From: an uncultured Gammaproteobacteria bacterium
GTDB lineage: Bacteria > Patescibacteriota > Microgenomatia > UBA10105 > UBA927
Direction: 5' to 3'
DNA: 64,000 nucleotides
Assembly (NCBI GenBank): GCA_964609895.1
Contig: CAZSTG010000005.1
Location: 6,998 to 70,997, forward strand
The position numbers and the translations under genes were made by a program. Positions 1 to 62,751 of this stretch are shown here, piece after piece (the first letter of the stretch is position 1; the number at the start of each line of letters is the position of its first letter). The notes under the pieces are model-generated. The model was not told the DNA's origin. It worked only from the letters and a program-made list of their open reading frames with translations, and ran no database searches.

Positions 1-671
1 ATATCAACACCCTGAAAACCGGTTAATGTGCCCATATAGAGAATCTCATGGATGGTACAGTGCTCCCGCGGAATGATGATATCTCTGCGGAGTCTGATTC
101 CATTTGGAACAACAGTTTGATGTGCAAATGTTGTATGCCACTTTCTATTTCTCTTTTGTATCATGGAATCTGCATAATTCCATGTACAGCGTACATATCT
201 TGCGCATATTGCGTCCAACAGATGATACAGATAATTCAGCATTCTGTTGGAAAAACGGTTCTCCGCATAGTCTATAACGTAGTAAACTGACCGCACTGTT
301 CTACGACACCATTGCGACAGCAATCCTGCAAACGCGTTTATGTTGCCGGAACCGATACAAACATCAACCGGCCCCGTGGCTACTTTGAACAGCCAGAAAA
401 GCGAATAGAACAGGTCGATACCATACGCGCAGATCTCAGGTAAATGATGATCGATCGCCTCGTATTTTTTAACGAGTTTTCCGTTTACCCAATGTTCACA
501 ATAGGATTTTCTGATTGTATTGCTGCCCACATACCTATTTACATGTCCGATGAACAAAACTTCTTTTGCCTTTTGAGACAGAAGATAATCTCGTAGCTCA
601 TGAGGGGGACCGTAAATGAAGTCGTGACATATAACCGCAAATCTTCGCTTTTTGAAAAAATCCTGTGTCAT
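1..671 (-). CDS. Glycosyltransferase, GT-B fold (GT4/GT1-like). The 3' end is cut by the window edge (partial).
   Basis: Not in the ORF track because no stop falls in the window. Manual translation of the minus strand from ATG (rc of 669-671) gives MTQDFFKKRRFAVICHDFIYGPPHELRDYLLSQKAKEVLFIGHV...NAFAGLL...VYYVIDYAENRF...TVVPNGIRLRRDIIIPREH...ILYMGTLTGFQGVD, open to position 1. 'VVPNGI' and 'GTLTGFQGVD' are typical of the GT4 N-/C-domain junction. The start is 8 nt downstream of the stop at 680. Confidence 0.45.
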   Translation of the reverse strand, partial: MTQDFFKKRRFAVICHDFIYGPPHELRDYLLSQKAKEVLFIGHVNRYVGSNTIRKSYCEHWVNGKLVKKYEAIDHHLPEICAYGIDLFYSLFWLFKVATGPVDVCIGSGNINAFAGLLSQWCRRTVRSVYYVIDYAENRFSNRMLNYLYHLLDAICARYVRCTWNYADSMIQKRNRKWHTTFAHQTVVPNGIRLRRDIIIPREHCTIHEILYMGTLTGFQGVD

Positions 672-679
672 GCCATGTA

Positions 680-2410
680 CTATTGCCCGCTGCCGTTGTT
701 TGTAAGAAATAGTTGAATTTCCTTTGAAATATCCGTCAGTCTCTTAGAAGATCCGTCGTAGGAGAACCCTATCACCTGACCCGCGGAAAATTTTTTGTCA
801 TTGTAATCTTGCAAGAGCAACTCCTTGTCCCAATAATAGCCGAACCCCTTTCCTGAGGATTCTTCATACCATTGACTGCCAAAACCCCAGAGTCTTCTGC
901 TTACCGGCAGGAGACTATCTGGAACATTTCCCGATTTATAGTACCAAACCATCAAAATATAACCCGGATCGAGCTGCAACGGAACAGGATGATTCATGTA
1001 ATTATAGTAATTGGTATTTCCCGTCAGGTATATTACCGACTTACTGGGTAATGTCGGCAAAAGACGGGAAAATTCAGTCAATACTTGCTTGGTATCCTGA
1101 CCGTATATGACATTTAGATACACATCCCTGCGGATGAGAACCACTTGTTTATAAAAATACAACACACTTCCTGCGACTATAATTGCTGTTACCAGCAGTT
1201 TAGGAAGGGTTTTTGTAAATCTCTTGCGGAACGTATCCAAAATAATTGCCGTCATTATTCCAATCGGGATGATGCTGGCGTATACATATCTTGACTCAAC
1301 GTACGCAGTACCTCTCTGTGACAGATACACACTTATCGGAACAAAACTCAAAACGTAAAACAAAAGAGCTATAAGCAGCGTTTTTTGCTGTTTTTTATTC
1401 GTAGCATACGCAACACCGATTGTGATCGATAGGAAAAATGAGAAAACAACCGATAGAAAATCCGAAATGATGTTTTCTGATATAACACCGGCGCTATTTA
1501 TGTACGCTGCAATATTGGAATAATTAAAGTTTAAGAATCTCTCGGCCATGCGAAACATATACTTAGGAGGAATAAATGTCTGCGACAGCGATATGAATGG
1601 GTAAAAAACGGAGTTAAACAAAAATTTCAGCCAGAATGAACCGGTACTATCCGATGCCGTCAACACAATATTTTTCCCGTACATTGATATCATTCTATAG
1701 ACTCCAAGTGCAACCATCGGCAGTATCAATAGCAAATTGCTTTTCAGGATTTTTATGACACTTTGTCGGCCTTTTGAAATCAAATACTGAAAAACCGGCA
1801 AAAATATGAAAATATAGAAACTTGCATCCTTAAACAGAAAAGCCAAATAGCCGAATGCCCATGACAAAATATAATATCTTTTTTCTTCATTTTTCGAGTA
1901 CATCATCATGAACCATACGGACAACAATATGCATGTTGTTGATGTTGGCACCTGCGTAACGTTGGCTATCCATGTAAAAGCCTGATTTGCTATGCTTGCA
2001 GTCACAAAAAAGAGTCCGCTGAAAACGGCAATAAACGTATTCTTATTACATTTCTTAAGCAGGCCAAATACCAACAAACCGTTCACTATATGAAAAACAT
2101 AGGATGTTAATGCAAATGGAAGAAGATTAAATGGAAAATAATAATAGAATACATTAATAAGTAAACTCCCAAGCAATCTTCCCTTCCCCATCAGTAATTC
2201 GAAGACACTGAAATTAACAATCGTTGATTTCAAACCGTCGGTATAAATACCTGCCATAGAAAGCCATTCATCATTAAGATAATACAGCTGAGGCAATTTT
2301 TCATAGCTGTACAGCGTAATAAGGACAATGAGGACGAAATACAGAATAAAGATATATCTTTTCTTTAGATTCCCGATGAATCCGACACAAAAATCTTTAG
2401 GCTTTTTCAT
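680..2410 (-). CDS. Polytopic membrane protein with a C-terminal soluble domain, putative GT-C-type glycosyltransferase.
   Basis: 588-aa ORF (track 680..2446). The N-terminal ~400 aa are rich in hydrophobic helices ([20 protein letters not shown]...) and the C-terminal ~180 aa are hydrophilic. Start trimmed to M13 (cat at 2408-2410) to reduce overlap with fcl. Confidence 0.4.
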
Positions 2411-3359
2411 ACCCGCGGTGAACAAAGTTTTGAGTATACCAGTCAACAGTAGTTTTTAATCCTGTATCAAAGTCCGTTGTTGAGGCGAAATTAAATTCCC
2501 TTTTCGCCCGAGTGGTATCAAGCATTCTGCGCGGCTGGCCATCCGGCTTGGTTTTATCCCACACGATTTTGCCCTCATAACCGGTATACTTTTTAATCTT
2601 TTCAACCAAATCTTTTATGGATATTTCAAAACCTGCACCGATATTCACCGGATCGGATTTGTCATAGTACTCCAAAGAAAGCCTGATTGCTCTGGCAGCA
2701 TCTTCGACATACAAGAATTCACGTGTGGCTTTTCCCGTACCCCAGACGACAACCTCATTCATATGCTTTTCTTTTGCCTCTATCATACGACGGATAAGCG
2801 CGGGTATAACATGGGAAGATTCCGGATTGAAATTATCACCCGGTCCATATAAATTAACTGGCAATAAAAAGATGGAATTGAAATTATACTGCGCCCTGTA
2901 TGATTCGGATTGTACCAAAAGCATTTTTTTGGAAAGCCCATAGGGGGCATTTGTTTCCTCTGGATATCCATTCCATAAGTTTTCTTCCTTAAACGGAACT
3001 GGGGTGAATTTTGGATAACAGCAGATGGTTCCAAGAGCTACAAACTTTTCAACACCCGCCTTCCATGCTTCATGAATAAGTTGAACTCCCATCAGCAAAT
3101 TTTTGTAAAACATTTCCGCAGGATGTTCTCGATTATAGCCTATGCCGCCAACCATTGCGGCCAAATGAATAACACCATCAACTCCTTTTACCGCCTTTTT
3201 CACATCAGATAATCTGCAAAAGTTTAGCTCTTTTGAAGAAGGATAAAGCAGATGCTTTGCACCATGTTGTTGAAGCTCATGAATGACGTGCTTTCCTAAA
3301 AATCCGTTTCCTCCTGTAACAAGTATTGTCTTATTCCGTATGTCAAATGTTTTCTTCAT
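2397..3359 (-). CDS. fcl: GDP-L-fucose synthase (GDP-4-keto-6-deoxy-D-mannose 3,5-epimerase/4-reductase).
   Basis: [16 protein letters not shown] Rossmann motif plus [22 protein letters not shown] and PYGLSKK (YxxxK) follow the Fcl/GMER pattern. Start moved to the internal M (MKKTFDIR; cat 3357-3359), which is preceded by AAGAGGAG. Confidence 0.8.
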
Positions 3360-4374
3360 AATTTGTTTCTCCTCTTGATAGATACCAATAATAGTGCAGT
3401 GTAGGTTTTTTGAACACTCTAGACCATATTGTATCATCTGATACAGACCGAATATGTGTTTGTATATATCTCCGGTATCTAATAAGTGTCGGCAGCCGCC
3501 GTATATTCCACCATATGGCTCTTTGAATATTCCATGCCAGTTGATATTTCCCCTTAACCAATGAGGTCAGAAAAAACGCCTCACAGAATAGCAGATGGAT
3601 TGGCAGAATCTTTATCAACCAACCGCCGCTCAAGTTCTTTATATATGAGTGTATTCGGTTTTTAAATGAATGATATTGAATAAAGGCGTTATTCATCGAA
3701 CTGCTCGTTGCACCCATTTTATGATAGATAACGGATTTGTATGCGTACACAATCCTATACCCCGCCAGCCACACCCGATGACACATATCCGTTTCTTCAA
3801 AATACGCGAAATACGAAGGATCGAGGATATTTCCTTCAACTTCCACTTTTTTCAACACTGATTTTTTAAACATCATACACGCACCTTTTGCTGTGTAAAG
3901 GTCAATTTGTTTATCGTATTTCGGAGTATCTTTTGCGCCGAAACCGTAATGGTACAAAAATCCTGTCGGAGTTAAAAATGCCCCCACACTGTCATGTGTA
4001 TCAGGATGATCCATCAGAAGAATCTTACTTTGTGCTCCGCCGATTTTTTTGTCACTTCCCATTACTCTCACCAATTCTGTCAAAAACGTTTTTGTCACCC
4101 GTGTATCGTTATTTAAGAAAAGAATATACTCACCTTTTGCAACCTTGTACCCCACGTTATTCGCGTCAGAGAACCCAAGGTTTTCCTTATTGATGAGAAT
4201 TGTTGTTTTCGGATAGTTTTTCTTCACCCAAGATACTGATTCGTCTTTTGAAGCATTATCAACAAAGATAATTTCATAATTTTTATACTCTTGTTTGGAC
4301 AGACTATCAAAACAATCTGGTAGCCATCGAAGACCATTCCAATTAATAATAATGATTGACACTAGACCTTTCAT
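3343..4374 (-). CDS. Glycosyltransferase family 2.
   Basis: [24 protein letters not shown]...[13 protein letters not shown] is the GT2 N-terminal signature, with a DxD-like region later. There is a 4-nt ATGA overlap with the upstream gene. Confidence 0.8.
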
Positions 4375-5489
4375 GATAATCTTTCCGAATAAAACTTCTT
4401 AATAAATTTTGCGACATATGCTATCTGTTCCTGTGTGAGTTCCGGATACATCGGTAACGATACTAACTCTTCCGCATATTGTTCAGCATTTGGAAAATCT
4501 CCCTTTGTATAACCCAAATGTGAAAATGCACCGGTCAAATGAAGTGGAACGGGATAATGTATTAATGTCCCAACTCCATGATCTTTCAAATACTGCTGCA
4601 GTTCATCGCGATATTGAGCCCGAATTGCATAAATGTGAAACACACTTTGTCTGTCAGGAAGTAGCATCGGCATCACAATATCACTGCACCCATAAAGACA
4701 CTCATTATAATAGGAGGCGTTTTTTCTTCTTTGACTGTTCCATGCATCAAGATGTGACAATTTTTTACGAAGCACAGCAGCCTGAATCGAATCCAAACGG
4801 GAATTCACGCCGATAGATTCATGATGATATTTTGTTGTTTGCCCGTATTCCCTGAGCAAACGATACGTTTTGTCCAAATCATCATCATTTGTCGCAATGA
4901 CACCGCCATCCCCGTATGCACCAAGGTTCTTCCCCGGATAGAACGAAAATGCAGAAAATCTGCCGAAGGTACCTACTTTTTTGTTTTCATATACGGCGCC
5001 GTGTGCCTGACATGCGTCTTCTATAAGAAAAATTTCCTTGTTTTTTTCCTGAATCACCTGCTGAATACCTGATATATTTTCCGGTTGACCATAGAGGTGA
5101 ACTGCGATAATTGCTTTCGTTTTTTTGGTTATTTTTTTCCTAAGATCCGGCAGCGACATGCCGTAGTATTCGTCACTATCAACAAATACCGGACGAAGAT
5201 TATTACGCACTACCGCAACCGCGGTTGCATAAAACGTATTCACGGGAACGATAACCTCATCATCAGGTGACAAATGTAACGCTTCAATTCCCAAAATGAG
5301 CGCATCAGTACCTGAATTGACGGAAATGACATGTTTGACGCCTAAAAATGAAGCAAATTCTTCTTCAAAGGCGGCTACTTCCCTGCCTCCAATAAACTGC
5401 ATCTCATGAAAAATCCGACTGAATGATTCATTTACCTCAGACTGTATGGATACATATTGTTCCTGCAGATCCAGATACGGTACATTCAT
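4371..5489 (-). CDS. DegT/DnrJ/EryC1/StrS-family PLP-dependent sugar aminotransferase (FdtB-like).
   Basis: The N-terminus MNVPYLDLQEQY...EEEFASFLGVKHVISVNSGTDAL is characteristic of the DegT family. The length (372 aa) fits. Confidence 0.8.
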   Translation of the reverse strand: MNVPYLDLQEQYVSIQSEVNESFSRIFHEMQFIGGREVAAFEEEFASFLGVKHVISVNSGTDALILGIEALHLSPDDEVIVPVNTFYATAVAVVRNNLRPVFVDSDEYYGMSLPDLRKKITKKTKAIIAVHLYGQPENISGIQQVIQEKNKEIFLIEDACQAHGAVYENKKVGTFGRFSAFSFYPGKNLGAYGDGGVIATNDDDLDKTYRLLREYGQTTKYHHESIGVNSRLDSIQAAVLRKKLSHLDAWNSQRRKNASYYNECLYGCSDIVMPMLLPDRQSVFHIYAIRAQYRDELQQYLKDHGVGTLIHYPVPLHLTGAFSHLGYTKGDFPNAEQYAEELVSLPMYPELTQEQIAYVAKFIKKFYSERLS

Positions 5490-6016
5490 AGACTGTGCGT
5501 GTGGGCAATATCCTTTTTATGTTTTATAACACGGGCGGGGTTTCCGACAACCACCGCGTCATCCTCAACATCTTCGGTAACGACACTCCCTGCGCCGATA
5601 AGACAGTTTTTCCCGATATGAATGCCAGGCAGAATCGTCGCATTTGACCCGATGACAGTTCCGTCCCCCACAATAGCACCGCCTACTTCTTGGACGCATT
5701 TCGGACATGGCGGATACGGATCATCGGTAAACACAACATGGGGAGCGATAATAACGTTATTTCCGAGAGTAACCGATTCCAAAAAACACGATGTGTGAAT
5801 TTTTGTGTCATTGCCAATTTTATTACCCGGACCCAAATAGGAATTTACTCCCACCGAAACCCGATCACCGATCGTGTTCTGTTCCCGTATAACGGCATTA
5901 TGGCCGGTTACGAAACCGCTTCCATACACACTTCCGTCATAGATAACCGTCCCCGAGCGGACTATTGCATCTGGGTGCTGTTTTTTAAATGTCAGTTCAT
6001 CAATTATGTCTGCCAT
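5486..6016 (-). CDS. Hexapeptide-repeat (left-handed beta-helix) sugar N-acetyltransferase (FdtC/PglD-like).
   Basis: Repeated [LIV]G hexapeptides: VGVNSYLGPGNKIGNDTKIH...IGSNATILPGIHIGKNCLIGAGSVV. It lies between the aminotransferase and the cupin isomerase. Confidence 0.75.
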   Translation of the reverse strand: MADIIDELTFKKQHPDAIVRSGTVIYDGSVYGSGFVTGHNAVIREQNTIGDRVSVGVNSYLGPGNKIGNDTKIHTSCFLESVTLGNNVIIAPHVVFTDDPYPPCPKCVQEVGGAIVGDGTVIGSNATILPGIHIGKNCLIGAGSVVTEDVEDDAVVVGNPARVIKHKKDIAHTHSL

Positions 6017-6018
6017 AG

Positions 6019-6426
6019 CTACAGTAGTGAGTATGGAATAGTGTCCGGTGCGTCATGGTGATACGGTTTATCTGCATAATCAATCATCATTGCGGTTTCA
6101 GAAATGTTTTGAAATGCATGAGCAATATTTTTTCCTATAAATACCCGCTCGTATTCATCGTTATTCCCGTCTAAAACCCGTTCCATGCGTTCATGCGTCT
6201 TCATGTCCTCTGCAACAAGTTTCACTGTACCCGCAATCACGACAAACCACTCGTCTTTCGTCTTGTGATAATGATTTCCCCGTATGACGCCTCTTTGTTC
6301 AAAGGTCACAAAATATATCTGACCGAGTTTTTGATGGTCTTTCGACATTTCATCACCTTTAATAAAGTCAACGAGAAAACCCCGTTTATCTCTTCGTCTC
6401 ACTGCCTTATCAAAAACTATATTCAT
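6019..6426 (-). CDS. Small cupin, FdtA/WxcM-like sugar 3,4-ketoisomerase (putative).
   Basis: 135 aa with RGNHYHK...G...D motifs, resembling FdtA/QdtA-type dTDP-4-keto-6-deoxyglucose 3,4-isomerases. Sits next to an acetyltransferase and an aminotransferase, which is the fdtA-fdtC-fdtB arrangement. Confidence 0.55.
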   Translation of the reverse strand: MNIVFDKAVRRRDKRGFLVDFIKGDEMSKDHQKLGQIYFVTFEQRGVIRGNHYHKTKDEWFVVIAGTVKLVAEDMKTHERMERVLDGNNDEYERVFIGKNIAHAFQNISETAMMIDYADKPYHHDAPDTIPYSLL

Positions 6427-7418
6427 TATGTTTTCCTGTGAATCTTTTGTCTTCTTAAAATTGTAACACGCACCAGTTCAAATACCAAAGCTACGAAGGA
6501 AGCCATGGTCAACGGAAAATGATACAGCCATTCTTTCTTTCCCGTGATTATATATCCAACGACCGAAACACACAGAGGCAATACAAACAGTCCTGCATAT
6601 ATCGGCCATACCAGTTTTTTGAATTTTCTCATGGCTGAAAAATAGACGATTCTCTTTTTAATCCCGTATTCCGAGCCTAGCAGGTAATTGTCAAACGCCC
6701 ATCGCTGTTTTCTGAAATACTGAGACAATGAGGAGATGGTATGGTGTGCCACCTGAGCATGAGGGACATACGCAAGGTAATCCTTACGGGTAATCGCGTC
6801 CACAATGGGTAAAATATCGTCACCGGGATTAGCTCGTTCGTTTTCCTGTCTTCGTATCGTCGTTCCCTGCGCCAACGCAATCATCGGATAATCCACAGGC
6901 GAGAATTTATATATAATAGAATGTTCATTTTTCTGGATCGTTTGATAACATAATTCGAATGTTCTCGTATTTGACGCATTTCCATAGACAAAATGACTGA
7001 TCGGGTCGGTAAACATATTAATATATTTAGAGATCCAATAATCATTCTCTGTGCTCACCTGTATCGGATAGGTTATCATCACCCGTCCGTCCTTTTTAAA
7101 CGGGTATATGATATGAGTAATGAAGTCCGTACCGATAAGCTCGTTATCCGCAGCCAATATCGTCACGTACCGGCCGATTGCCTGTGACATACCCAGTGTT
7201 ACACCAAATTCGGCAAGTTTTTTGGGATTGTGAATGATCGTACAACCAAATTTTTTGCCTATCTCGATCGTCTGGTCTGTTGATCCGCCGTCACATAACA
7301 GAATTTCAATTTTTTCTTTCGGATACTGTTGTGCCTTGATGGAGGTAAGACAAAGCGGTAAATCCTGTTCACTATTGTATACCGGGATCACTATGGAAAG
7401 ATCAATTGATCGCGTCAT
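6426..7418 (-). CDS. Glycosyltransferase family 2 with C-terminal transmembrane helices.
   Basis: LSIVIPVYNSEQDLPLCLTSIKAQQY...LCDGGSTDQT is a GT2 signature. The C-terminus is hydrophobic (FVLPLCVSVVGYIITG). Start set at internal MTRSIDL (cat 7416-7418), directly after the upstream stop at 7420. Confidence 0.75.
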   Translation of the reverse strand: MTRSIDLSIVIPVYNSEQDLPLCLTSIKAQQYPKEKIEILLCDGGSTDQTIEIGKKFGCTIIHNPKKLAEFGVTLGMSQAIGRYVTILAADNELIGTDFITHIIYPFKKDGRVMITYPIQVSTENDYWISKYINMFTDPISHFVYGNASNTRTFELCYQTIQKNEHSIIYKFSPVDYPMIALAQGTTIRRQENERANPGDDILPIVDAITRKDYLAYVPHAQVAHHTISSLSQYFRKQRWAFDNYLLGSEYGIKKRIVYFSAMRKFKKLVWPIYAGLFVLPLCVSVVGYIITGKKEWLYHFPLTMASFVALVFELVRVTILRRQKIHRKT

Positions 7419-7419
7419 A

Positions 7420-8271: not shown

Positions 8272-8272
8272 A

Positions 8273-9610: not shown

Positions 9611-9611
9611 A

Positions 9612-10718: not shown

Positions 10719-10720
10719 AC

Positions 10721-12768: not shown

Positions 12769-12769
12769 A

Positions 12770-13741: not shown

Positions 13742-13746
13742 AACAT

Positions 13747-23396: not shown

Positions 23397-23401
23397 ATTG
23401 T

Positions 23402-25021: not shown

Positions 25022-25022
25022 A

Positions 25023-27964: not shown

Positions 27965-28004
27965 ACGATATATCTCATTGTATCATGGAAGAACGGCTTT
28001 TTCC

Positions 28005-29477: not shown

Positions 29478-29527
29478 ACGCCCTATGGCAAATGTAGGAA
29501 TATATATAGTATATAATAGATACGCAT
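29478..29527. promoter_or_regulatory. AT-rich divergent intergenic region, putative bidirectional promoter.
   Basis: 50 nt between divergent starts (cat 29475-29477, atg 29528-29530). TATAAT lies at 29513-29518, only about 9 nt upstream of the + strand ATG, which suggests a leaderless or short-leader transcript. The opposite strand has TATATT-like boxes. Confidence 0.35.
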
Positions 29528-33523: not shown

Positions 33524-33579
33524 AGTTGTCTTCTTGACCGACTGCTTCTATCATAATACATAGCGCTGTTATTTAATAT

Positions 33580-35325: not shown

Positions 35326-35334
35326 AAAAAGTAT

Positions 35335-36243: not shown

Positions 36244-36247
36244 AGGT

Positions 36248-44428: not shown

Positions 44429-44429
44429 A

Positions 44430-48265: not shown

Positions 48266-48266
48266 G

Positions 48267-49832: not shown

Positions 49833-49833
49833 A

Positions 49834-51357: not shown

Positions 51358-51374
51358 TATAACGGAATAAACAG

Positions 51375-52562: not shown

Positions 52563-52569
52563 GAATATG

Positions 52570-53328: not shown

Positions 53329-53331
53329 ATA

Positions 53332-54873: not shown

Positions 54874-54879
54874 AAATAA

Positions 54880-56004: not shown

Positions 56005-56029
56005 ACAGTTTTCCGGTCCGTTTGACAGG

Positions 56030-56989
56030 TTAGACCCGTTCTCGCCAATAGTTGAGAAGGTCTTCCATTGTTTTTTCAAATGGGATTTCCGGCTTCCATC
56101 CTGTTTTTGCCACAAATTTACTATTGTCGCCAATAAGAACCGGAACTTCAGACGGACGCATACGTGCTGGATCCTGTCTGATCTCCACTTTCACTTTACT
56201 CATGCCGATAAGCATATTGAGCATGTCTTTGATCACGACTGCGTTCCCTGTACAGATATTATATACGTCTCCCGCATCGCATTTTTCAACTGCAAGCAGG
56301 TATCCTCGCACCATATCACGGACATCCGTCCAGTCCCGTTGCGCTTCAAGATTACCGACATGGATCACCGGTTCCAGTTTGCCTTTTTCTATCATCGCAA
56401 TCTGTTTTGCAAAATTGGATGTTACAAATGTCTCACCGCGTCTCGGACCGGTGTGATTGAATCCTCTTGTTCGGATAATGTTCATGCCATAGGAGCAAAA
56501 ATATTGATATCCGAGATAGTCCATGGCAACTTTTGAAACGCCGTATGGGCTCTGTGGCCGAAGCGGATTTGTCTCCTTAATCGGCACTTCATCCGGATGA
56601 ACCAACCCATATTCTTCACTTGAACATGCAATCTGGATGGCAGGATTGATTTTCGCCTGACGAACCGCTTCAAAAAGGTTTGCTGATCCGATAATGTTGA
56701 CTTCCAGTGTTACAGACGGTGATACCCATGATGTTGGAACGAAGGACTGGGCTGCAAGATGAAAAATATAATCAGGACGAATCCTTGAAATGGTTCCGTA
56801 TAAACTATGGGAATCTAAAATATCAGCATCTTCCAAATGGAGTTGTGGTTTAATGCCTTCAATAAGATCCATGCGGGATCGAGGCCTGCTTAATCCATAG
56901 ACTTCAAAACCTTTGGAAAGCAAAAGTTCCGCCATGTGGCTTCCTACGAAACCACCGATTCCTGTTATAAGTGCTTTTTTAGCTGCCAT
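56030..56989 (-). CDS. GDP-4-keto-6-deoxy-D-mannose reductase (Rmd)-like short-chain dehydrogenase.
   Basis: KKALITGIGGFVGSHMAELL...PYGVSKVAMD (YxxxK)...DPARMRPSEV...KTGWKPEI parallels Rmd (DPARMRRAE...TGWKPEI). 319 aa. AGGAGG lies 10 nt upstream. Confidence 0.6.
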   Translation of the reverse strand: MAAKKALITGIGGFVGSHMAELLLSKGFEVYGLSRPRSRMDLIEGIKPQLHLEDADILDSHSLYGTISRIRPDYIFHLAAQSFVPTSWVSPSVTLEVNIIGSANLFEAVRQAKINPAIQIACSSEEYGLVHPDEVPIKETNPLRPQSPYGVSKVAMDYLGYQYFCSYGMNIIRTRGFNHTGPRRGETFVTSNFAKQIAMIEKGKLEPVIHVGNLEAQRDWTDVRDMVRGYLLAVEKCDAGDVYNICTGNAVVIKDMLNMLIGMSKVKVEIRQDPARMRPSEVPVLIGDNSKFVAKTGWKPEIPFEKTMEDLLNYWRERV

Positions 56990-57055
56990 ACAGATGTTCC
57001 TCCTTACCTTTCTAGAATGTAGGTATATTATACCGTAAACTTTTATAAAACGATA
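56990..57055 (-). promoter_or_regulatory. Putative internal sigma70-type promoter plus RBS for the rmd-like gene.
   Basis: On the minus strand: ...TTTACGGTATAATATACC...AAGGAGGAACATCTGATG. TATAAT is the rc of 57027-57032 and AGGAGG is the rc of about 57008-57013. This is one of the very few gaps over 60 nt in the window. Confidence 0.4.
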
Positions 57056-58354
57056 TTACATTCTGCCAACGCCGAAATATCTATACCCCAGATCTTTCAT
57101 TGTCTGCGGATCATACATGTTTCTTCCGTCAAACAACACTCTGTCTTTTAAACCTTTTGCAAGTCGAACCATATCAAGCTGTTTAAATTCATTCCATTCA
57201 GTTACGACAACAACTGCATCAGCACCATTTGCCGCTTCATATGCCGACGTTGCGTACGTTACACCATCAGGCAACACCTTCTTTGCATTCTCCATAGCAA
57301 CTGGATCATAGGCTTTGACTATGGCACCGTCTTTTATAAGCGCTGAAATAATAGTAATGGATGGAGCAAACCGCATATCATCCGTATCCGGTTTGAACGA
57401 TAGCCCCAACACACCAATTGTTTTTCCTTTCACATGGTCATTAAAGTGCTTCTTGATCTTGTCAATAAAATGCACCCGAGCTTCATCATTAATCTCATCT
57501 GTTGCCTTCAGCAATGTAAAGTCGTACTCATAGTTTCTTGCAATGGCTATGAGTGCTTTGACATCTTTTGGAAAACAGCTCCCCCCGTAACCAACACCGG
57601 GATATAAAAAGTTTCGTCCGATTCGGCTGTCAAGTCCAACGCCTTCGAGCACCTTTTCAACATCCGCCCCGACTTTTTCCGATAAAAATGCCATTGCGTT
57701 TGCAAATGAAATTTTCACAGATAACATGGAGTTGGCTGCATATTTGATAAGCTCTGCTGTTTCCACATTACATAACACAAGTTTGGTATCAATGGGTTTG
57801 TGGAGATCAATCATCATTTTCTGCGCTCTGTCGGATGTTGTTCCAATAACTACCCGTTGCGGATGTTGGGTATCACCAACCGCCTGTCCTTGACGCAAAA
57901 ATTCCGGACAGGAGCAAATGGCAAAGGAAGAACCTGCGGGTTTGACCTCGTCAAGTATCTCGCCAACCTTTTTGTTTGTTCCAGGCGGCACCGTGCTCTT
58001 CACAGACACAACCTTATATCCTGTCAGGTTCTTACCAATTTCCCGAGCCGCATTAAATACTTCAGTAAGATCGGCATCTCCTGTTGGTTTTGGCGGTGTA
58101 CCAACTGCTATGAAAATAATTTCTGACGGCACAACAGCTTCTTTATATTCAAGGGTAAAAATAAGCCGTCCCGCATTAACGTTTCTCTTTACAATCTCTG
58201 AAAGTCCCGGTTCATAGAATGTTGCTATACCCTGTTTCAGTTTTTCAATTTTTTCCTTATTCCGTCCGACAACCCATACTGTATTACCGAGATCGGCAAA
58301 TATTGCCGCCGTCACCAACCCGACATATCCGTGACCGATAAACGCAACTGTCAT
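57056..58354 (-). CDS. ugd: UDP-glucose 6-dehydrogenase.
   Basis: MTVAFIGHGYVGLVTAAIFADLGNTV...IFIAVGTP... and ...GGSCFPKDV (catalytic Cys). 432 aa. AGGAGG upstream. Confidence 0.85.
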   Translation of the reverse strand: MTVAFIGHGYVGLVTAAIFADLGNTVWVVGRNKEKIEKLKQGIATFYEPGLSEIVKRNVNAGRLIFTLEYKEAVVPSEIIFIAVGTPPKPTGDADLTEVFNAAREIGKNLTGYKVVSVKSTVPPGTNKKVGEILDEVKPAGSSFAICSCPEFLRQGQAVGDTQHPQRVVIGTTSDRAQKMMIDLHKPIDTKLVLCNVETAELIKYAANSMLSVKISFANAMAFLSEKVGADVEKVLEGVGLDSRIGRNFLYPGVGYGGSCFPKDVKALIAIARNYEYDFTLLKATDEINDEARVHFIDKIKKHFNDHVKGKTIGVLGLSFKPDTDDMRFAPSITIISALIKDGAIVKAYDPVAMENAKKVLPDGVTYATSAYEAANGADAVVVVTEWNEFKQLDMVRLAKGLKDRVLFDGRNMYDPQTMKDLGYRYFGVGRM

Positions 58355-58375
58355 AATACATTCCTCCTAAAAAAT

Positions 58376-59260
58376 TTATACTGCTTCCTGCTTTTTTACT
58401 TCCTCAAGTCCCTCTTGTACCGTATGAAGATGTACGCCTAATGCGTCAATCCTGTCATGCCGGAGCGCCGCTTTTTTCGGAATTGCCGCCCTTCCTTTAA
58501 AAAACTCCGCATATGTCGTTTTTCCGACCAGCTGCACATCAAGACCGAACGTACGTGCGATAAGCACCATCATGTCATAAGGAGCAATCGGCTGTTCACT
58601 CGGTACATGAAAAATACCGCTCCCATTCTCTCGGACAATTGCGTCGACTGCAACTGCCAAATCGTCGATAAATGTGCATGTGAAAATCTGATCGGTCGGA
58701 GCGGCGACAGAAAGATTATCAGCCAGCCTGTTTCTTATCCGATGGACAAAATCCAACTTTGTTTTTTCGTTCATCCCTTTCGGATAGGCACGATACGGAT
58801 TTCCGATGCGGACGATCACACCCATCGCGCCCAGCTCCTTTACAGCCTCTTCTCCGTGAAATTTTGTCTCCGTATAAAAACTTAAAGGATTCGGTGTATC
58901 GTTTTCATTATATGCATCCTTCGTTCCGTCAAACACATAATCGGTTGATATATACAGCAGATGTTTTCCGAATTTCCTACACAGCGAAACGATTGATTTT
59001 GTTGCATCAACATTCACTTTCCATGCAACACTGTGTTCCCGCAAGTCTTTTTCTTTTTCAGCACCCTGTACATCTGTATATGCTGCAAAATGAAATACCC
59101 ATGGCGCATCAGATGCTGCAAACCGTTTCTCAAGTGCCGCGGCGTCCGTAATGTCAATGCCTGTCTCAAGACTCAAATTCTCAAAAGCATATGCCGACGA
59201 TAAAAGATCGACAACTCTTGATCCGACCATGCCGGTCAGTCCGGTTCCTAGAATATTCAT
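58376..59260 (-). CDS. rmlD: dTDP-4-dehydrorhamnose reductase.
   Basis: MNILGTGLTGMVGSRV...YISTDYVFDG...PLSFYTETK. 294 aa. 4-nt overlap with rmlB. Confidence 0.8.
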   Translation of the reverse strand: MNILGTGLTGMVGSRVVDLLSSAYAFENLSLETGIDITDAAALEKRFAASDAPWVFHFAAYTDVQGAEKEKDLREHSVAWKVNVDATKSIVSLCRKFGKHLLYISTDYVFDGTKDAYNENDTPNPLSFYTETKFHGEEAVKELGAMGVIVRIGNPYRAYPKGMNEKTKLDFVHRIRNRLADNLSVAAPTDQIFTCTFIDDLAVAVDAIVRENGSGIFHVPSEQPIAPYDMMVLIARTFGLDVQLVGKTTYAEFFKGRAAIPKKAALRHDRIDALGVHLHTVQEGLEEVKKQEAV

Positions 59261-60276
59261 TGCCGCTGCTCCCCATATTGTTTCTCATAATATGACTGGT
59301 ATGCACCGGTTTTTATATTTTTCCACCATTCTGTATGTTCCTGATACCAGACGACGGTTTTTTCCAGCCATGCATCAAATCCGTATTGCGGTTTCCATCC
59401 CAGTTCTTTGTTTATTTTTGTCCAGTCAATCGCATATCGTCTGTCGTGTCCGAGTCTGTCTTTGACAAACTCAATCAGCGATTCGTCGCGACCCATAATT
59501 TTCAATATCTTTTTTACTACATCAAGATTAGAAATATCTTCCGTCACGCCGCCGACACAATACGTTTCTCCGATCTTCCCACGGTTCAATACCGCATCAA
59601 TTGCCCGACAGTGATCCTCAACATACAGCCAGTCCCTGACGTTTAATCCGTCACCGTACACAGGAATAGTTTTTCCTTCCAGAATATTGGTAATTGTCAG
59701 TGGAATGAATTTCTCAGGAAATTGCAGCGGTCCATAGTTATTGGAACAATTGGTGATCGTGACGGGCAATCCGTATGTGTCATGATATGCCCGAACAATA
59801 TGGTCGGAACCTGCTTTGCTTGCCGAGTAGGGGCTATGCGGATCGTATTTCGTCAATTCATCAAATTTATTGGAACTACCCAAATCCAACGATCCGAAGA
59901 CCTCATCCGTTGAGACATGATGAAAACGTTTCACAGACAACTGTACCGCTGCTTCCAACAACACCTGTGTTCCCAGCACGTTTGTTTTCACAAAAGGGGA
60001 TGCATCAAGAATGGAGCGATCCACATGACTTTCCGCAGCAAAATGCACCACTGTATCACATCCTGTCATCGCAGCTGTTACTTCAGGAGCAATACAGATG
60101 TCGCCTTTGATAAACTGATACCGGTTGCTTTGTTCTATGCTTTTCAGGTTTTCCAGATTCCCCGCATAGGTGAGTGCATCAAAATTCACCACTGTATCAT
60201 CAGGATGCTCGCGCAACCAATAAAGGATGAAGTTTGATCCAATAAATCCTGCACCGCCTGTAACAAATAGCTTCAT
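59257..60276 (-). CDS. rmlB: dTDP-glucose 4,6-dehydratase.
   Basis: MKLFVTGGAGFIGSNF...HFAAESHVDRS...PYSASKAGSDHIVRAYHDTYGLPVTITNCSNNYGP. Start corrected to M17 (cat 60274-60276). Confidence 0.9.
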   Translation of the reverse strand: MKLFVTGGAGFIGSNFILYWLREHPDDTVVNFDALTYAGNLENLKSIEQSNRYQFIKGDICIAPEVTAAMTGCDTVVHFAAESHVDRSILDASPFVKTNVLGTQVLLEAAVQLSVKRFHHVSTDEVFGSLDLGSSNKFDELTKYDPHSPYSASKAGSDHIVRAYHDTYGLPVTITNCSNNYGPLQFPEKFIPLTITNILEGKTIPVYGDGLNVRDWLYVEDHCRAIDAVLNRGKIGETYCVGGVTEDISNLDVVKKILKIMGRDESLIEFVKDRLGHDRRYAIDWTKINKELGWKPQYGFDAWLEKTVVWYQEHTEWWKNIKTGAYQSYYEKQYGEQRQ

Positions 60277-60281
60277 ATGTT

Positions 60282-60755
60282 TTATGTTATTTTTGTATTG
60301 GTGATCGGTTTTCCCTGCACCCAATCATACCCAATCGTCTTGTCGTCATATTGAATCCGTCCTTCTTCTTTCGGATCGTATGTTTTACTTGTGGCATAAA
60401 CAAAATCACATGGACCTTCAAGAACCTTCATGCCGTGCGCGACACCTGCAGGAATTTTCAACACAATATTATCCGGTTCTTCCCCCAGTATATATTCCAT
60501 TGTTTCCCCTTTTGTCAAAGACCCCTCGCGGGTATCATAGAGTGCTGCTTTGATCTTACCTTTTACACAAAACCACCAGTCAATCTGTGTGGTGTGGACG
60601 TGCCACGCCTTGACCACGCCTTCCACCATAAATGAATGGGAAAGTTGTCCGAATCCTTCGGAAAAAAATTCATCCGTATTTCTGATAATTTCTTCAAAAT
60701 ATCCCCGTTCGTCAGGATGTCGTACCAATTTCTTAATCATCACACCGTCAATCAT
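60282..60755 (-). CDS. rmlC: dTDP-4-dehydrorhamnose 3,5-epimerase.
   Basis: RGYFEEIIRNTD...AWHVHTTQIDWWFCVKGKIKAALYDTR. 157 aa cupin. Confidence 0.85.
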   Translation of the reverse strand: MIDGVMIKKLVRHPDERGYFEEIIRNTDEFFSEGFGQLSHSFMVEGVVKAWHVHTTQIDWWFCVKGKIKAALYDTREGSLTKGETMEYILGEEPDNIVLKIPAGVAHGMKVLEGPCDFVYATSKTYDPKEEGRIQYDDKTIGYDWVQGKPITNTKIT

Positions 60756-61489
60756 ATGGTTCCTTTCTTCATTTTTTCCGCTACCTGATTGTTTGCGCGC
60801 AAAAGCTCATCATACGACGTTCCCGCATCCACCCACCAGTCAATGATCTCACAAGTCAATTTTCCGTCACGAAGATACATGTTATTCAGATCCGTCACTT
60901 CCAGTTCACCCCGTGCAGAAGGCGATAGCTGCTTGATGTAGTCAAACACTTTATTGTCGTACATGTAAATACCGGTTTGCGCAATATCGGATTTCGGCGC
61001 AGACGGTTTTTCTTCTATGGACAACACGTTTCCTTTATCATCCACTTCAATAACACCATATTGTTTTGCATCCATGTGCATATGGATACCAAACACTTTT
61101 GCGCCTGTTTTTTGCTTTTCAAACGCCTCGACCGCCGGACGGAGATTATAGTCAAATATGTTATCGCCGAGAATAACCATAAGCGGCTCATCATGGGTAA
61201 ACTCTTCAGCAAGCGCAATCGCGTCGGCGATTCCCCCTTTAGGGTTATTCTGCACGCCGTAATACAGACGCATGCCGAATTCTTCACCGGATGTCAGGAG
61301 ATTGGCAAACTGTGCGATCGATTCCCCGCCTGTAGTAAGCAGTACTTCTTTCACACCTGCCCGTTGCATGGCTTCTATCGGATAGTAAATCATCGGTTTG
61401 TTATATACCGGCAACAAATGCTTGTTTGTCACAAGCGTCAACGGACGAAGTCGGGTTGCCAAACCTCCAGCTAATATTAATCCCTGCAT
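60752..61489 (-). CDS. rmlA: Glucose-1-phosphate thymidylyltransferase (short form).
   Basis: MQGLILAGGLATRLRPLTLVTNKHLLPVYNKPMIYYPIE...ILGDNIF. AAGGAG RBS upstream. Confidence 0.85.
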   Translation of the reverse strand: MQGLILAGGLATRLRPLTLVTNKHLLPVYNKPMIYYPIEAMQRAGVKEVLLTTGGESIAQFANLLTSGEEFGMRLYYGVQNNPKGGIADAIALAEEFTHDEPLMVILGDNIFDYNLRPAVEAFEKQKTGAKVFGIHMHMDAKQYGVIEVDDKGNVLSIEEKPSAPKSDIAQTGIYMYDNKVFDYIKQLSPSARGELEVTDLNNMYLRDGKLTCEIIDWWVDAGTSYDELLRANNQVAEKMKKGTI

Positions 61490-61531
61490 ATGTACCGCTC
61501 CTTTCCCTCTAATGAAATACTGTTGTTTGTA

Positions 61532-61780
61532 TTACGTCCACAATATTGTCAGTAGCAATACCACTGCGATTGCACCGACAAGACAATATTCTATCACAAC
61601 TTTCGGATGGAGATCTTCTTCGAGACTATGATAGATAATTCCCCAAATGACGTATGAGACTGCCGTAGCGACACCGATATACATCTGCATCACCTTATCG
61701 TTTGCGGCTCCCCAAAACGTCCACACGCCTGTTATCAGAATAATCAAAAGCACTATGTAATTGACATGCGTTAATTTCAT
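61532..61780 (-). CDS. Small membrane protein (2-3 TM), unknown.
   Basis: 82 aa, hydrophobic (IVLLIILITGVWTFWGA...LVGAIAVVLLLTILW). ATGA overlap with the upstream CAP gene. Confidence 0.4.
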   Translation of the reverse strand: MKLTHVNYIVLLIILITGVWTFWGAANDKVMQMYIGVATAVSYVIWGIIYHSLEEDLHPKVVIEYCLVGAIAVVLLLTILWT

Positions 61781-62751
61781 AACAATACTCCGCGTCTTAC
61801 AATGGTAAGCGCGATAAAAAAGGCCGTGAAAAACAGGATGTGCGCCATATTGTGTCCTGCAACACGGGCAATTCTTTTTTTGGAAACAATGATGCCATCG
61901 ATGACGAGAATTCCAATCAAGAGACCCATAAATAAAAATGCCACGTCGCGGGTCAGTGTGGGAATGTTGATCATCGGCTTTTCCGACACGCTGGAAAACA
62001 TGGTGGACAACACATCAAGAACCGGTGTCGGCTTCGCGGCGGATACAGGAACAATACTTACAGGTGGAACAACCTGCTCTTCAATCTCTCTTTTGGTCTG
62101 TTCTCCAAGCTGTGTGGATTCCGGAGCAACTTCCACAACTGCGGCCTGTTCTGGTACCACCGTTTTCGCAGGCTCACGGAGCGCCAGAGCTTCGCTCGCC
62201 CCGAACATCTGCACAACTAGCGTCGTTTCTTCCCCGTTTAAGACACCATTCACGATGGCAAATCCTATATCCTGATATGCGGGTTTTATAATATTGTCCC
62301 GATGCGTCGGTGAAGCCATCCATGCATCAATAACTCCCTGACTTGTGGAAAAATTTTTCGCCAGATTTTCTCCTGCTACCGTGTAGGTATATCCCGCCTG
62401 CTGGATAAACGTCCATGGCGTTTTCCCTTCAGGACTGTTATGAGCCCAATAGTCGTTGGCGAACATATCCTGTGCTTTCAGCGCCGCTGCTTGAGACAGC
62501 GTTACATTATACGTCAAGGGAGATAATCCCAACTCTTGCCTTTTGGCATTTGTTCCGCCGAGCAGCTGGTCAACCCGAATGTCTGTCGCATAACCAAGCA
62601 CGTTTGGAAATTCCCGATGCATAATACGGACGCCAAAATTGAAAATTGCAAAAATAAGGACATAACAGAGCATGGAATCAAGGTGTAATGCTTTTGCCCT
62701 GTGATTATTGGAAAGATACGGAACAAAAAAATGACGCAGGAAACGCTCCAT
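61777..62751 (-). CDS. CAP/SCP/PR-1-domain protein with an N-terminal TM and a C-terminal TM anchor.
   Basis: NAKRQELGLSPLTYNVTLSQAAALKAQDM...YWAHNSPEG...GENLAKN...AWMASPTHRDNI is a CAP-domain signature. It is followed by an E/P/V-rich linker and a TM (FLFMGLLIGILVIDGIIV). Confidence 0.6.
   Translation of the reverse strand: MERFLRHFFVPYLSNNHRAKALHLDSMLCYVLIFAIFNFGVRIMHREFPNVLGYATDIRVDQLLGGTNAKRQELGLSPLTYNVTLSQAAALKAQDMFANDYWAHNSPEGKTPWTFIQQAGYTYTVAGENLAKNFSTSQGVIDAWMASPTHRDNIIKPAYQDIGFAIVNGVLNGEETTLVVQMFGASEALALREPAKTVVPEQAAVVEVAPESTQLGEQTKREIEEQVVPPVSIVPVSAAKPTPVLDVLSTMFSSVSEKPMINIPTLTRDVAFLFMGLLIGILVIDGIIVSKKRIARVAGHNMAHILFFTAFFIALTIVRRGVLL

Follow-up and report, generated by a model that had tools for sequence, protein, structure and literature searches.

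Several described machineries come close to the glycan-assembly locus that occupies positions 1-62751 of the 64,000-nt stretch analysed here (the window; forward-strand positions 6,998 to 70,997 of contig CAZSTG010000005.1, GenBank assembly GCA_964609895.1). In the lipid-linked oligosaccharide pathway of the endoplasmic reticulum (ER; ALG, Dpm1/Alg5, Rft1) and in the archaeal Agl pathway, glycosyltransferases of families 4 and 2 (GT4, GT2) work inside, a step like that of a MOP flippase follows, and polytopic glycosyltransferases of the GT-C class work beyond the membrane with polyprenol-phosphate sugars. The assembly of lipomannan (LM), lipoarabinomannan (LAM), and arabinogalactan in mycobacteria and corynebacteria (PimA/B, PimE, MptA/B/C, Emb, Aft, Ppm1) is, to our knowledge, the only well-studied bacterial system in which a comparable number of GT-C enzymes use such donors. 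Three-component systems (GtrA/GtrB/GtrC, CsbB-GtcA-YfhO, ArnC-ArnT, GacI-GacK-GacL) combine a GT2 polyprenol-phosphate-sugar synthase, a flippase, and an outside-acting GT-C enzyme (PMC5836110, PMC8035078). Teichoic acids are glycosylated by GT-C enzymes of the YfhO type and related types, with C55-P-sugars made by CsbB/GtrB-type GT2s as donors (PMC5836110, PMC8035078), and such enzymes also glycosylate streptococcal surface proteins (PMC5856776, PMC12041528). The Pgf proteins of Streptococcus mutans (PgfS, PgfM1, PgfE, PgfM2) form a surface glycosylation machinery of the Gram-positive type (PMC5856776, PMC12041528).

The present locus probably encodes a two-phase, ER-like lipid-linked pathway for a cell-envelope glycan. 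It would follow the same two-phase order as the ER and Agl pathways, includes a PIG-V-like enzyme, and contains one orphan GT-C protein whose structural neighbours include ALG enzymes, PIG-M, and AglB. In contrast to both pathways, it has no recognised STT3/AglB-type oligosaccharyltransferase or Alg7/WecA-type priming enzyme, and its families are the bacterial PMT_2, YfhO, PTPS_related, GT87, and MptA_B instead of ALG; the comparison is one of function and not of membership. GT87 and MptA_B members are shared with the mycobacterial system, whose genes are scattered over 4 Mb, whereas here a single locus in a genome of about 1 Mb holds 21 GT-C genes. Moreover, YfhO and PTPS_related proteins dominate here, Wzx is present, no Emb or Aft families were found, and the organism is an unrelated, monoderm-like bacterium of the Candidate Phyla Radiation (CPR). 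With the three-component systems the locus has YfhO members in common, and it contains a GT2-GtrA fusion, but in those systems a single GT-C enzyme adds a single side-chain sugar, as against 21 GT-C enzymes and about five candidate synthases here. Pgf proteins are the best NCBIfam neighbours of the YfhO paralogues and of several GT2s, and an epimerase is shared; the scores of 18-74 bits against cutoffs of 500-1500 mean that these are not orthologues, and Pgf has four genes where the locus has more than 50. By analogy, the locus looks like a greatly multiplied three-component or Pgf machinery.

The gene content was obtained from a six-frame listing of open reading frames (ORFs) and a greedy gene call, which gave 57 ORFs in the window and 54 within the locus. 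Independent gene calls, made on short contigs of metagenome run SRR8925774 that match the window exactly, supplied start sites, as did orthologue lengths; elsewhere the first start codon was used, a choice that accounts for the few large "overlaps". The locus encodes 38 glycosyltransferases (13 GT2, 4 GT4, and 21 GT-C), and besides these two Wzx/MOP flippases, 11 sugar-nucleotide genes, and three non-carbohydrate genes (Table 1). An earlier note on this DNA had counted more than 35 glycosyltransferases, with 4 GT4, about 20 GT-C-type polytopic proteins, two flippases, and about 14 GT2; the classes and numbers agree, except that GT2 enzymes are slightly fewer and that the left edge cuts the fourth GT4. 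As the note had also stated, the cytoplasmic enzymes belong to GT2 and GT4 by Pfam and are outnumbered by GT-C enzymes (17 against 21). Its statement that every gene is carbohydrate-related fails for 20399-20986, 61532-61780, and 61777-62751. Instead of the six or more nucleotide-sugar pathways that it had listed, the 11 genes make up about four routes that can be recognised. RmlABCD form one and UDP-glucose dehydrogenase another; in the third, two Fcl-like reductases accompany a GDP-mannose-dehydratase-like enzyme, and the fourth, for an acetamido-deoxy-sugar, consists of a cupin, an aminotransferase, and an acetyltransferase.

In the Pfam scan of the 57 ORFs, matches were obtained to GT2 (13), GT4 (3), PMT_2 (8), YfhO (4), GT87 (1), PTPS_related (1), Polysacc_synt flippases (2), and sugar-nucleotide enzymes (11), with no match for nine ORFs. 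Two PMT_2 matches lie exactly at the gathering score and one below it, and one YfhO match is a weak C-terminal match only; the other YfhO E values are 2.2e-28, 6.5e-21, and 1.2e-29. NCBIfam matches are below the curated cutoffs throughout. PDB sequence searches with 3-671 and 39543-41858 gave no match.

Hydropathy shows 21 polytopic proteins, flippases apart, with at least seven transmembrane (TM) helices (7-12 peaks each). Assignment to GT-C comes from direct Pfam matches for 14 of them (three at or below the gathering score), precomputed PF26314 matches for two, homologues bearing PF04188 for one, BLAST or hhalign links for three, and the fold for one (31970-33523), so that the seven Pfam-negative proteins are also placed. 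All-vs-all BLAST makes 16548-18158 a paralogue of 21738-23396, 46589-48265, and 48267-49820; both 21738-23396 and 48267-49820 match 16548-18158 and 46589-48265 at E = 1e-31 to 6e-70. Among the 1199 homologues of 14427-15458, many carry PF04188 (PIG-V/Gpi18-type mannosyltransferase) and some also PMT_2 or GT87. Profile-profile comparison links the PTPS_related type to YfhO at 91-99% probability, YfhO to PMT_2 at 88-91%, the PMT_2 subfamilies to one another at 97-99%, and PMT_2 to the PIG-V-like protein at 73%. Thus the large membrane ORFs belong to GT-C families by Pfam, profiles, or fold, which disposes of the alternative, raised in the earlier note, that they are mostly transporters.

The topology agrees with this assignment. 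A short Lys/Arg-rich N-terminus, TM1, and then a loop of 50-90 aa are found in 19 of the 21 GT-C proteins, and most have a D-E, D-D, or H-D-G motif within about 15 residues after TM1. In orthologue alignments of nine GT-C families this acidic motif is at least 90% conserved (pairs in Table 1); for the YfhO paralogue 29528-31930, the set of 13 sequences shows no conservation of an acidic residue in loop 1. By the positive-inside rule, the Lys/Arg-rich N-terminus places the canonical catalytic loop of GT-C enzymes on the outer side of the membrane. The GT-C active sites are therefore predicted, from a crude hydropathy-based topology, to face outside as the earlier note had expected, and the enzymes are predicted to use lipid-phosphate sugars as donors. 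Paralogues within the window are 24-37% identical, whereas orthologues between genomes are 43-90% identical, and thus the GT-C expansion is old and not a recent amplification.

The protein 31970-33523 stands apart from the other GT-C families. None of its 364 homologues is named or carries a Pfam domain. A 55-sequence alignment shows an invariant F-G-C-F-D-D-C-F stretch right after TM1 and four invariant cysteines (C36, C40, C461, and C490). The AlphaFold model (pLDDT 92.3, pTM 0.92) has a GT-C fold, with yeast Pmt4 as the best structural match and ALG12, ALG3, ALG9, ALG6, PIG-M, AglB, AftA, AftB, PimE, and EmbA as further neighbours; the likeness to AftA and AftB is structural only, at 10-12% identity. 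Profile comparison of the 55 sequences with the other GT-C families of the window gave at most 37% probability and hence no link, so its placement comes from the fold alone. It seems to represent a GT-C family that existing sequence models do not cover.

The donors of such enzymes would be lipid-phosphate sugars, and candidate genes for making them are present. All-vs-all BLAST splits the GT2s into subfamilies, one of which consists of 10721-11512, 13747-14430, 45862-46611, 52570-53328, and 54880-56004. The best NCBIfam models of these five are PgfS, Dol-P-hexose transferase, ArnC, AglJ, and PpgS, all polyprenol-phosphate glycosyltransferases. GtrA (PF04138) occurs in the window as the C-terminal domain of 54880-56004 and not as a free-standing gene. 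The five GT2s are predicted makers of lipid-phosphate-monosaccharide donors; the matches indicate the class but not the sugar. Four of the five adjoin GT-C genes, which is not significant where 39% of the genes are GT-C. The remaining GT2s best match elongators of lipid-linked glycans (EpsD, MftF-like, rhamnosyltransferase, and GlfT1). These findings go in the direction of the earlier note, which had favoured extracytoplasmic assembly from lipid-phosphate sugars over a Wzy-type O-antigen.

Conservation was followed in a scan with one genome per GTDB species and the YfhO protein 39543-41891 as query, and the best 80 of 153 relatives were kept. All 80 are Microgenomates-type metagenome-assembled genomes (MAGs). 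The closest, found on a contig of 1.02 Mb from a "Microgenomates group bacterium", is 74% identical in the query protein; Candidatus Gottesmanbacteria follow at 63-48%, after which come Woesebacteria, Levybacteria, and unnamed Patescibacteria, with the lowest values at 43%. Judged by these sequence similarities, the DNA comes from a Gottesmanbacteria-like Microgenomates bacterium within the CPR. The genes from 35335 to 49820 are colinear in nearly all of the 80 loci, whereas the flanks vary. From 49820 down to 35335 the order is 48267-49820, 46589-48265, GT2, Wzx, GT2, GT2, GT2, YfhO, GT4, YfhO, and GT2. In the closer half of the loci, 49834-51357 and 51375-52601 are added, and the resulting 13-gene core (35335-52601) comprises Wzx, five cytoplasmic glycosyltransferases, one polyprenol-phosphate-sugar-synthase-like GT2, and six GT-C enzymes. 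Distant genomes have a GT2 like 52570-53328 in the slot of 45862-46611. Outside the core, the relatives carry variable PMT_2 and YfhO paralogues together with recurrent S-adenosylmethionine (SAM) methyltransferases and Pfam-less proteins of 513-653 aa. Altogether, 1013 of the 1146 ORFs in the 80 loci (88%) have a homologue in the window.

In the closest relative the whole arrangement, with the two opposite-strand genes, persists for 61 kb or more (about 563 to 624.4 kb) at 62-90% identity. To the left of the 3-671 homologue it carries about 9 kb more of glycosylation genes, up to a gene of the ferredoxin type. The left edge of the window cuts the locus, and position 1, where the earlier note had let it start, is not its beginning. 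The full locus is predicted to measure about 65-75 kb, most of it inside the window; at 60-75 kb, it takes up about 6-7% of a contig of 1 Mb. The synteny seen among species is chromosomal and housekeeping t6A genes flank the locus, which makes an origin from a phage, plasmid, or mobile element unlikely. We infer that the core has been inherited vertically across the Microgenomates, whereas the periphery (1-35325), with a second Wzx and growing sets of PMT_2 and YfhO paralogues, is variable.

The architecture is as compact as the earlier note had described. The coding fraction of the locus is 0.99, and the widest gap between genes measures 66 nt. Among the 49 same-strand junctions the median is -4 nt; 12 are exact 4-nt overlaps and 43 measure 20 nt or less, in line with the ATGA and 1-20 nt overlaps first noticed. 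The minus strand holds 52 of the 54 ORFs, so that the reported strand bias stands but the reported count of 51 does not; only 29528-31930 and 33580-35325 lie on the plus strand. Five units of transcription direction result: a minus run of 24 genes (62751 to 35335), a second minus run of at least 27 genes from 29477 to beyond position 1, and between them three single genes, namely 29528-31930 and 33580-35325 and, enclosed by these two, 31970-33523 on the minus strand. The two long units measure about 27-29 kb. Translational coupling and transcription as mega-operons are what we infer from this spacing.

The family composition argues for two-phase lipid-linked assembly, matching the assembly of the ER N-glycan precursor and of LM and LAM and not Wzy polymerisation. 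In the proposed pathway, the eleven enzymes at the two ends of the locus would make dTDP-rhamnose, UDP-glucuronate, a GDP-6-deoxyhexose, and an acetamido-deoxy-sugar. GT4 and GT2 enzymes at the cytoplasmic face would assemble a short oligosaccharide on a lipid carrier in the membrane, and a Wzx/MOP flippase would carry this intermediate to the outer face. Five Dpm1/GtrB/ArnC-like GT2s, one of them fused to GtrA, would load single sugars on polyprenol phosphate, and the 21 GT-C enzymes would extend and branch the glycan outside, one linkage each, from these lipid-phosphate sugars. The conserved core may then specify a conserved glycan and the variable periphery its diversification. Candidate acceptors are a surface or S-layer protein, a membrane lipid, and peptidoglycan.

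Several points weigh against this two-phase reading. The roles of the locus proteins are predictions from sequence, and since the NCBIfam scores are far below the curated cutoffs, no specific product, sugar, linkage, or acceptor is assigned. The first and last steps have no recognisable enzyme in the locus, neither a priming enzyme, which may lie elsewhere in the genome, nor a final ligase or oligosaccharyltransferase. Priming phosphoglycosyltransferases (PF00953, PF02397) were found neither in the window nor in the closest-relative loci L085 and L087, and an LCP ligase neither in the window nor in two stretches (42 kb) of the closest relative. PF02516 and PF04932 (STT3/PglB/PglL) have no match in the window, and none of its proteins has a WWD motif. 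An oligosaccharyltransferase within the locus was considered and rejected, as neither STT3 nor Wzy_C matched and the WWD motif was missing. Two GT-C proteins, 14427-15458 and 18142-19263, lack the simple pattern of N-terminus, TM1, and long loop, and hydropathy gives a crude topology. Operon structure and translational coupling are deduced from spacing alone, and promoter-like sites in the window are at or below shuffle expectation. Moreover, a single assembly line is assumed, and two flippases together with the split into conserved and variable parts suit two or more products equally well.

The last point leads to a tentative alternative, in which independent pathways are merely co-located, namely a peptidoglycan-linked secondary wall polysaccharide and several three-component decoration systems. 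In its favour, flippases occur twice, as do sets of GT4, GT2, and polyprenol-phosphate-sugar-synthase-like genes; the core is kept in 80 species beside variable flanks; and opposite-strand genes break the locus into five or more transcription units. The Rml genes would suit a rhamnose-rich wall polysaccharide of the kind that streptococci have. On the other hand, neither part is accompanied by an LCP ligase, an ABC exporter (no ABC transporter domain in the 57 window ORFs), or a priming enzyme, and the retention of the 61+ kb arrangement at 62-90% identity in the closest relative suggests selection on the ensemble. The alternative also overlaps with the two-phase pathway and does not exclude it.

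Somewhat less likely is a locus devoted mainly to protein O-glycosylation, where PMT_2 and YfhO enzymes would move sugars directly to Ser/Thr-rich secreted proteins, pilins, or an S-layer, by analogy with actinobacterial Pmt and the Pgf system of S. mutans; the Wzx branch would supply an oligosaccharide, en bloc or stepwise. Acetamido-deoxy-sugars and rhamnose are typical of S-layer glycans. The YfhO paralogues have PgfM1 and PgfM2 as best sub-threshold matches and several GT2s have PgfS; the core flippase 44430-45875 best matches an O-glycosylation flippase or TuaB-like model, and the orphan GT-C protein is structurally closest to yeast Pmt4. Glycosylated S-layers have been proposed for the CPR (PMC5220378), and streptococcal GT-C enzymes glycosylate disordered Ser/Thr regions (PMC12041528). 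In contrast, all of the supporting matches are far below curated cutoffs, the window contains no S-layer, pilin, or Ser/Thr-rich target gene and no PglL or PglB was found, and 21 GT-C enzymes go far beyond the needs of any known protein-glycosylation system.

A membrane-anchored lipoglycan like LM or LAM is less likely again. Here GT4 enzymes would act on a membrane glycerolipid inside, the product would be flipped, and GT87, MptA/B, and other GT-C enzymes would use polyprenol-phosphate sugars to build a long, branched glycan. The GT87 member of the PimE family (26678-27964), two MptA_B members (18142-19263 and 51375-52601), and four GT4 enzymes agree with it, and the lack of a polyprenol-priming phosphoglycosyltransferase in the locus fits a lipid acceptor without a polyprenol-PP link. 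Weak GT4 matches include diacylglycerol and phosphatidylglycerol glycosyltransferases, but they do not discriminate between acceptors, and the GT87 score is barely over its cutoff. Neither the Emb/Aft arabinosyltransferase families of Pfam nor phosphatidylinositol-anchor or related genes were found among the window ORFs, and Wzx-type flippases point instead to a polyprenol-PP-oligosaccharide intermediate.

Even though two Wzx-type flippases and many cytoplasmic glycosyltransferases recall a classical Wzx/Wzy O-antigen or capsule, and Wzy proteins are notoriously divergent, a polymerase and chain-length regulator beyond recognition are most improbable and this reading is largely refuted, as all 21 non-flippase polytopic proteins, two initially unassigned ones included, are placed in GT-C and the locus has no Wzy_C, credible Wzz, priming transferase, or export component. 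The two ORFs examined as a hidden Wzy were 14427-15458, with PIG-V-type homologues, and 31970-33523, with a modelled GT-C fold. Wzy_C and EpsG have no Pfam match in the window ORFs, and the sole Wzz (PF02706) match, at E = 0.088, is at chance level; neither Wzy_C, EpsG, Wzz, an ABC exporter, nor STT3/PglB/PglL was found in the 42 kb of the closest relative either. The earlier note, too, had recognised no Wzy or Wzz.

Table 1. Predicted genes of the window, in order of position (aa, amino acids; TM, transmembrane; n/80, number of the 80 relatives' loci with the gene)
Positions	Strand	Predicted product	Basis
3-671	-	GT4; N-terminal 222 aa of a 385-aa protein cut by the left edge	P0241 100% identical; PF00534/PF13692
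680-2410	-	GT-C, PMT_2 type, 576 aa, at least 8 TM helices	Pfam PMT_2; N-D-E-W motif in loop 1
2397-3359	-	NAD-dependent epimerase/reductase, GDP-L-fucose-synthase-like	Epimerase E = 1.5e-55; Fcl 285 bits vs cutoff 500
3343-4374	-	GT2, subfamily with 35335-36243 and 42591-43517	Pfam; all-vs-all BLAST
4371-5489	-	DegT/DnrJ/EryC1-type sugar aminotransferase	Pfam E = 4.7e-111
5486-6016	-	Hexapeptide-repeat sugar N-acetyltransferase (NeuD/PglB/VioB-like)	Pfam; NCBIfam
6019-6426	-	Cupin, FdtA/WxcM/WbuC-like sugar isomerase	Pfam; NCBIfam
6426-7436	-	GT2 with two C-terminal TM helices	Pfam; hydropathy
7420-8271	-	GT2	Pfam
8273-9610	-	GT-C, PMT_2 type, 445 aa	Pfam E = 1.9e-10; F-D-E-F motif in loop 1
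9612-10718	-	GT4	Glycos_transf_1 E = 5.5e-43
10721-11512	-	GT2, polyprenol-phosphate-sugar-synthase-like	Best sub-threshold PgfS, PpgS; start 11512 inferred from AGGA site
11509-12768	-	Wzx/MOP-type flippase 1, 12 TM helices	Weak Polysacc_synt; orthologue carries PF13440
12770-13801	-	NAD-dependent epimerase/dehydratase	Pfam; NCBIfam
13747-14430	-	GT2, candidate AglJ/ArnC/PpgS-like polyprenol-phosphate-sugar synthase	AglJ E = 4.1e-33, sub-cutoff
14427-15458	-	GT-C, PIG-V/Gpi18-like (GT76-type), 343 aa	Homologues with PF04188; protein itself without Pfam match
15496-16551	-	GT4	Pfam
16548-18158	-	GT-C family B (PTPS_related type, YfhO-like C-terminus)	YfhO C-terminal match; H-D-G motif
18142-19263	-	GT-C, MptA_B family	Precomputed PF26314; 30% identical to 51375-52601
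19260-20405	-	GT-C, PMT_2 type, 381 aa	Pfam
20399-20986	-	195-aa protein, one N-terminal TM helix, non-carbohydrate	No Pfam; DUF5667 E = 0.0024, sub-cutoff; orthologue in closest relative
20983-21756	-	GT2, subfamily with 41855-42613 and 43514-44428	Pfam; BLAST
21738-23396	-	GT-C family B, 552 aa, 10 TM helices	E = 6e-70 to 16548-18158; hhalign 99% to YfhO
23402-25114	-	GT-C, PMT_2 type; true start probably near 25021-25033	Pfam; W-D-E motif
25023-26681	-	GT-C, PMT_2 type, 34% identical to 23402-25114	Pfam; D35/E36 conserved
26678-27964	-	GT-C, GT87 (PimE-like family)	PF09594 26.2 bits vs cutoff 25
28005-29477	-	GT-C, PMT_2 type	Pfam; 29% identical to 53332-54873
29528-31930	+	GT-C, YfhO family, 800 aa	YfhO E = 2.2e-28
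31970-33523	-	GT-C-fold protein, 517 aa, family without Pfam model, FGCFDDCF motif right after TM1	Predicted fold; D38/D39 conserved
33580-35325	+	GT-C, related to PMT_2 paralogues 23402-25114 and 25023-26681	BLAST E = 3e-19, 2e-18; N-D-E-L motif
35335-36243	-	Core: GT2, Glyco_tranf_2_3 type	Pfam; 64/80
36248-38506	-	Core: GT-C, YfhO family, 752 aa	Pfam; 72/80
38497-39567	-	Core: GT4	Pfam; 74/80
39543-41858	-	Core: GT-C, YfhO family, 771 aa, query of the relatives scan	Pfam
41855-42613	-	Core: GT2	Pfam; 75/80
42591-43517	-	Core: GT2, rhamnosyltransferase/GlfT1-like (sub-threshold)	Pfam; NCBIfam; 72/80
43514-44428	-	Core: GT2	Pfam; 68/80
44430-45875	-	Core: Wzx/MOP flippase 2 (Polysacc_synt_3)	PF13440 E = 2.7e-52; 67/80
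45862-46611	-	Core: GT2, polyprenol-phosphate-sugar-synthase-like (PgfS/ArnC/Dol-P-hexose transferase type)	Pfam; NCBIfam
46589-48265	-	Core: GT-C, PTPS_related (family B)	Pfam; hhalign 95-98% to YfhO; H54/D55 conserved
48267-49820	-	Core: GT-C family B, no Pfam match	BLAST; hhalign 97-99% to YfhO; D38/D39 conserved
49834-51357	-	Core (closer relatives): GT-C, PMT_2 type	E = 6.6e-14; D94/E95 conserved; 41/80
51375-52601	-	Core (closer relatives): GT-C, MptA_B	Precomputed PF26314; 25/80, often beyond locus end
52570-53328	-	GT2, polyprenol-phosphate-sugar-synthase-like	PgfS E = 8.8e-21, Dol-P-hexose transferase 2e-18, ArnC 7e-18, sub-cutoff
53332-54873	-	GT-C, PMT_2/PMT type	Pfam; weak Agl23-like NCBIfam
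54880-56004	-	GT2 fused to GtrA/DPMS TM domain	PF00535 and PF04138 (E = 3.7e-14)
56030-56989	-	NDP-sugar 4,6-dehydratase, GDP-mannose-dehydratase-like	GDP_Man_Dehyd E = 1.3e-84; gmd 196 bits vs cutoff 415
57056-58354	-	UDP-glucose/GDP-mannose dehydrogenase	All three Pfam domains
58376-59260	-	RmlD-type dTDP-4-dehydrorhamnose reductase	Pfam
59257-60324	-	RmlB-type dTDP-glucose 4,6-dehydratase; start probably 60276	Pfam
60282-60755	-	RmlC-type 3,5-epimerase	Pfam
60752-61489	-	RmlA-type glucose-1-phosphate nucleotidyltransferase, first sugar gene in transcription order	Pfam; AGGAG site
61532-61780	-	Small two-TM protein, non-carbohydrate	DUF5656 E = 8.8e-5, sub-cutoff
61777-62751	-	CAP-domain membrane protein, non-carbohydrate, right border	PF00188 E = 6e-20; 3 TM helices
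62804-63220, 63136-63720, 63713-64000	-	t6A genes TsaB-like, TsaC/Sua5, TsaE (housekeeping)	Pfam; directly adjoin the locus

At the right border, the CAP protein 61777-62751 contains three TM helices, one N-terminal and two C-terminal, along with a linker rich in Pro, Glu, and Val. Its gene overlaps 61532-61780 by 4 nt, and both genes are co-oriented with the glycan genes and upstream of them. In the adjoining t6A group, the TsaB-like ORF (111-138 aa) covers only positions 27-85 of the 264-position TsaD/TsaB profile and may be a truncated or minimal form.

Strong Shine-Dalgarno sequences (AGGAGG or AGGAG, 8-9 nt) precede 56030-56989, 57056-58354, and 60752-61489 (sites 56989-57010, 58354-58375, and 61489-61510), whereas most glycosyltransferase genes have no recognisable one and show an A-rich upstream region or an overlap with the preceding stop codon. 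This contrast may mean that, within one transcript, genes differ in how, or how strongly, translation is initiated. Terminator-like hairpins with a T-run occur at about twice the shuffle expectation (37 vs 19.6 in 40001-60000; 32 vs 15.9 in 1-20000). Nearly all of them sit within T-rich coding sequence for membrane proteins, with three weak intergenic sites, and the excess is probably a by-product of Phe/Leu-rich codon runs and not a sign of real terminators. The tRNA scan of the window found none. The content of guanine and cytosine is 39-47%, with a negative skew all along the window. It is about 0.39-0.43 in the variable left part (1-22000) and about 0.44-0.47 in the conserved right part (44000-64000), a rise that fits differing histories or constraints for periphery and core.

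The loci of the relatives also show additions. In many Gottesmanbacteria, a pair of genes that the window lacks comes after the core. It encodes a SAM methyltransferase of about 288 aa and a Pfam-less protein of about 569 aa (L020:16562-19197), and the same pair takes the same position in L022, L023, L024, L026, L032, L033, L038, L040, L042, and L046. In Levybacteria, a methyltransferase of 197 aa lies farther downstream, separated from the core by a GT2 like 13747-14430 and more genes. The methyltransferases suggest O-methylated sugars in these relatives. Insertions into the core (L043:7938-9203 and L064:6119-7441) consist of a gene of the type I phosphodiesterase/alkaline-phosphatase family or with a PEP-utilising mobile domain, and hint at phosphate-bearing substituents in some lineages. 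Dozens of GTDB MAGs titled "uncultured Gammaproteobacteria bacterium" (among them L005, L006, L008, and L010) carry the core at 45-61% identity, and L062, titled "Candidatus Pacearchaeota archaeon", carries the same Microgenomates core. Such record titles are presumably placeholders, mislabels, or signs of misbinned contigs.

The individual enzyme classes are all known. We know of no other place where GT-C enzymes are so densely concentrated. An incomplete literature search found no description of a single locus with 21 GT-C enzymes, of the conserved 13-gene Microgenomates core, or of the GT-C family of 31970-33523; many glycosyltransferases and rmlABCD have already been noted in CPR genomes (PMC5220378).

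As a speculative extension, which we put forward with reserve, the core could be the pathway for a previously unknown, Microgenomates-wide glycoconjugate, assembled in an ER-like manner and replacing teichoic acids or lipoglycans in ultra-small episymbionts. The periphery could then be an antigenic or host-recognition layer, with at least one GT-C family beyond sequence models. CPR genomes measure about 1 Mb and have lost most biosynthesis, and the CPR envelope is, as far as we know, essentially unknown. The scale of the locus in a genome of this size is surprising, and the order of the core is kept across Gottesmanbacteria, Levybacteria, and Woesebacteria. The size of the investment argues for a function central to the lifestyle, which could be host attachment, protection, or phage defence. 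The locus offers a gene set for heterologous expression, a lineage marker, and a new GT-C family for structural work and enzymology. Its parts are conventional, and the core is a concrete handle on the CPR envelope.

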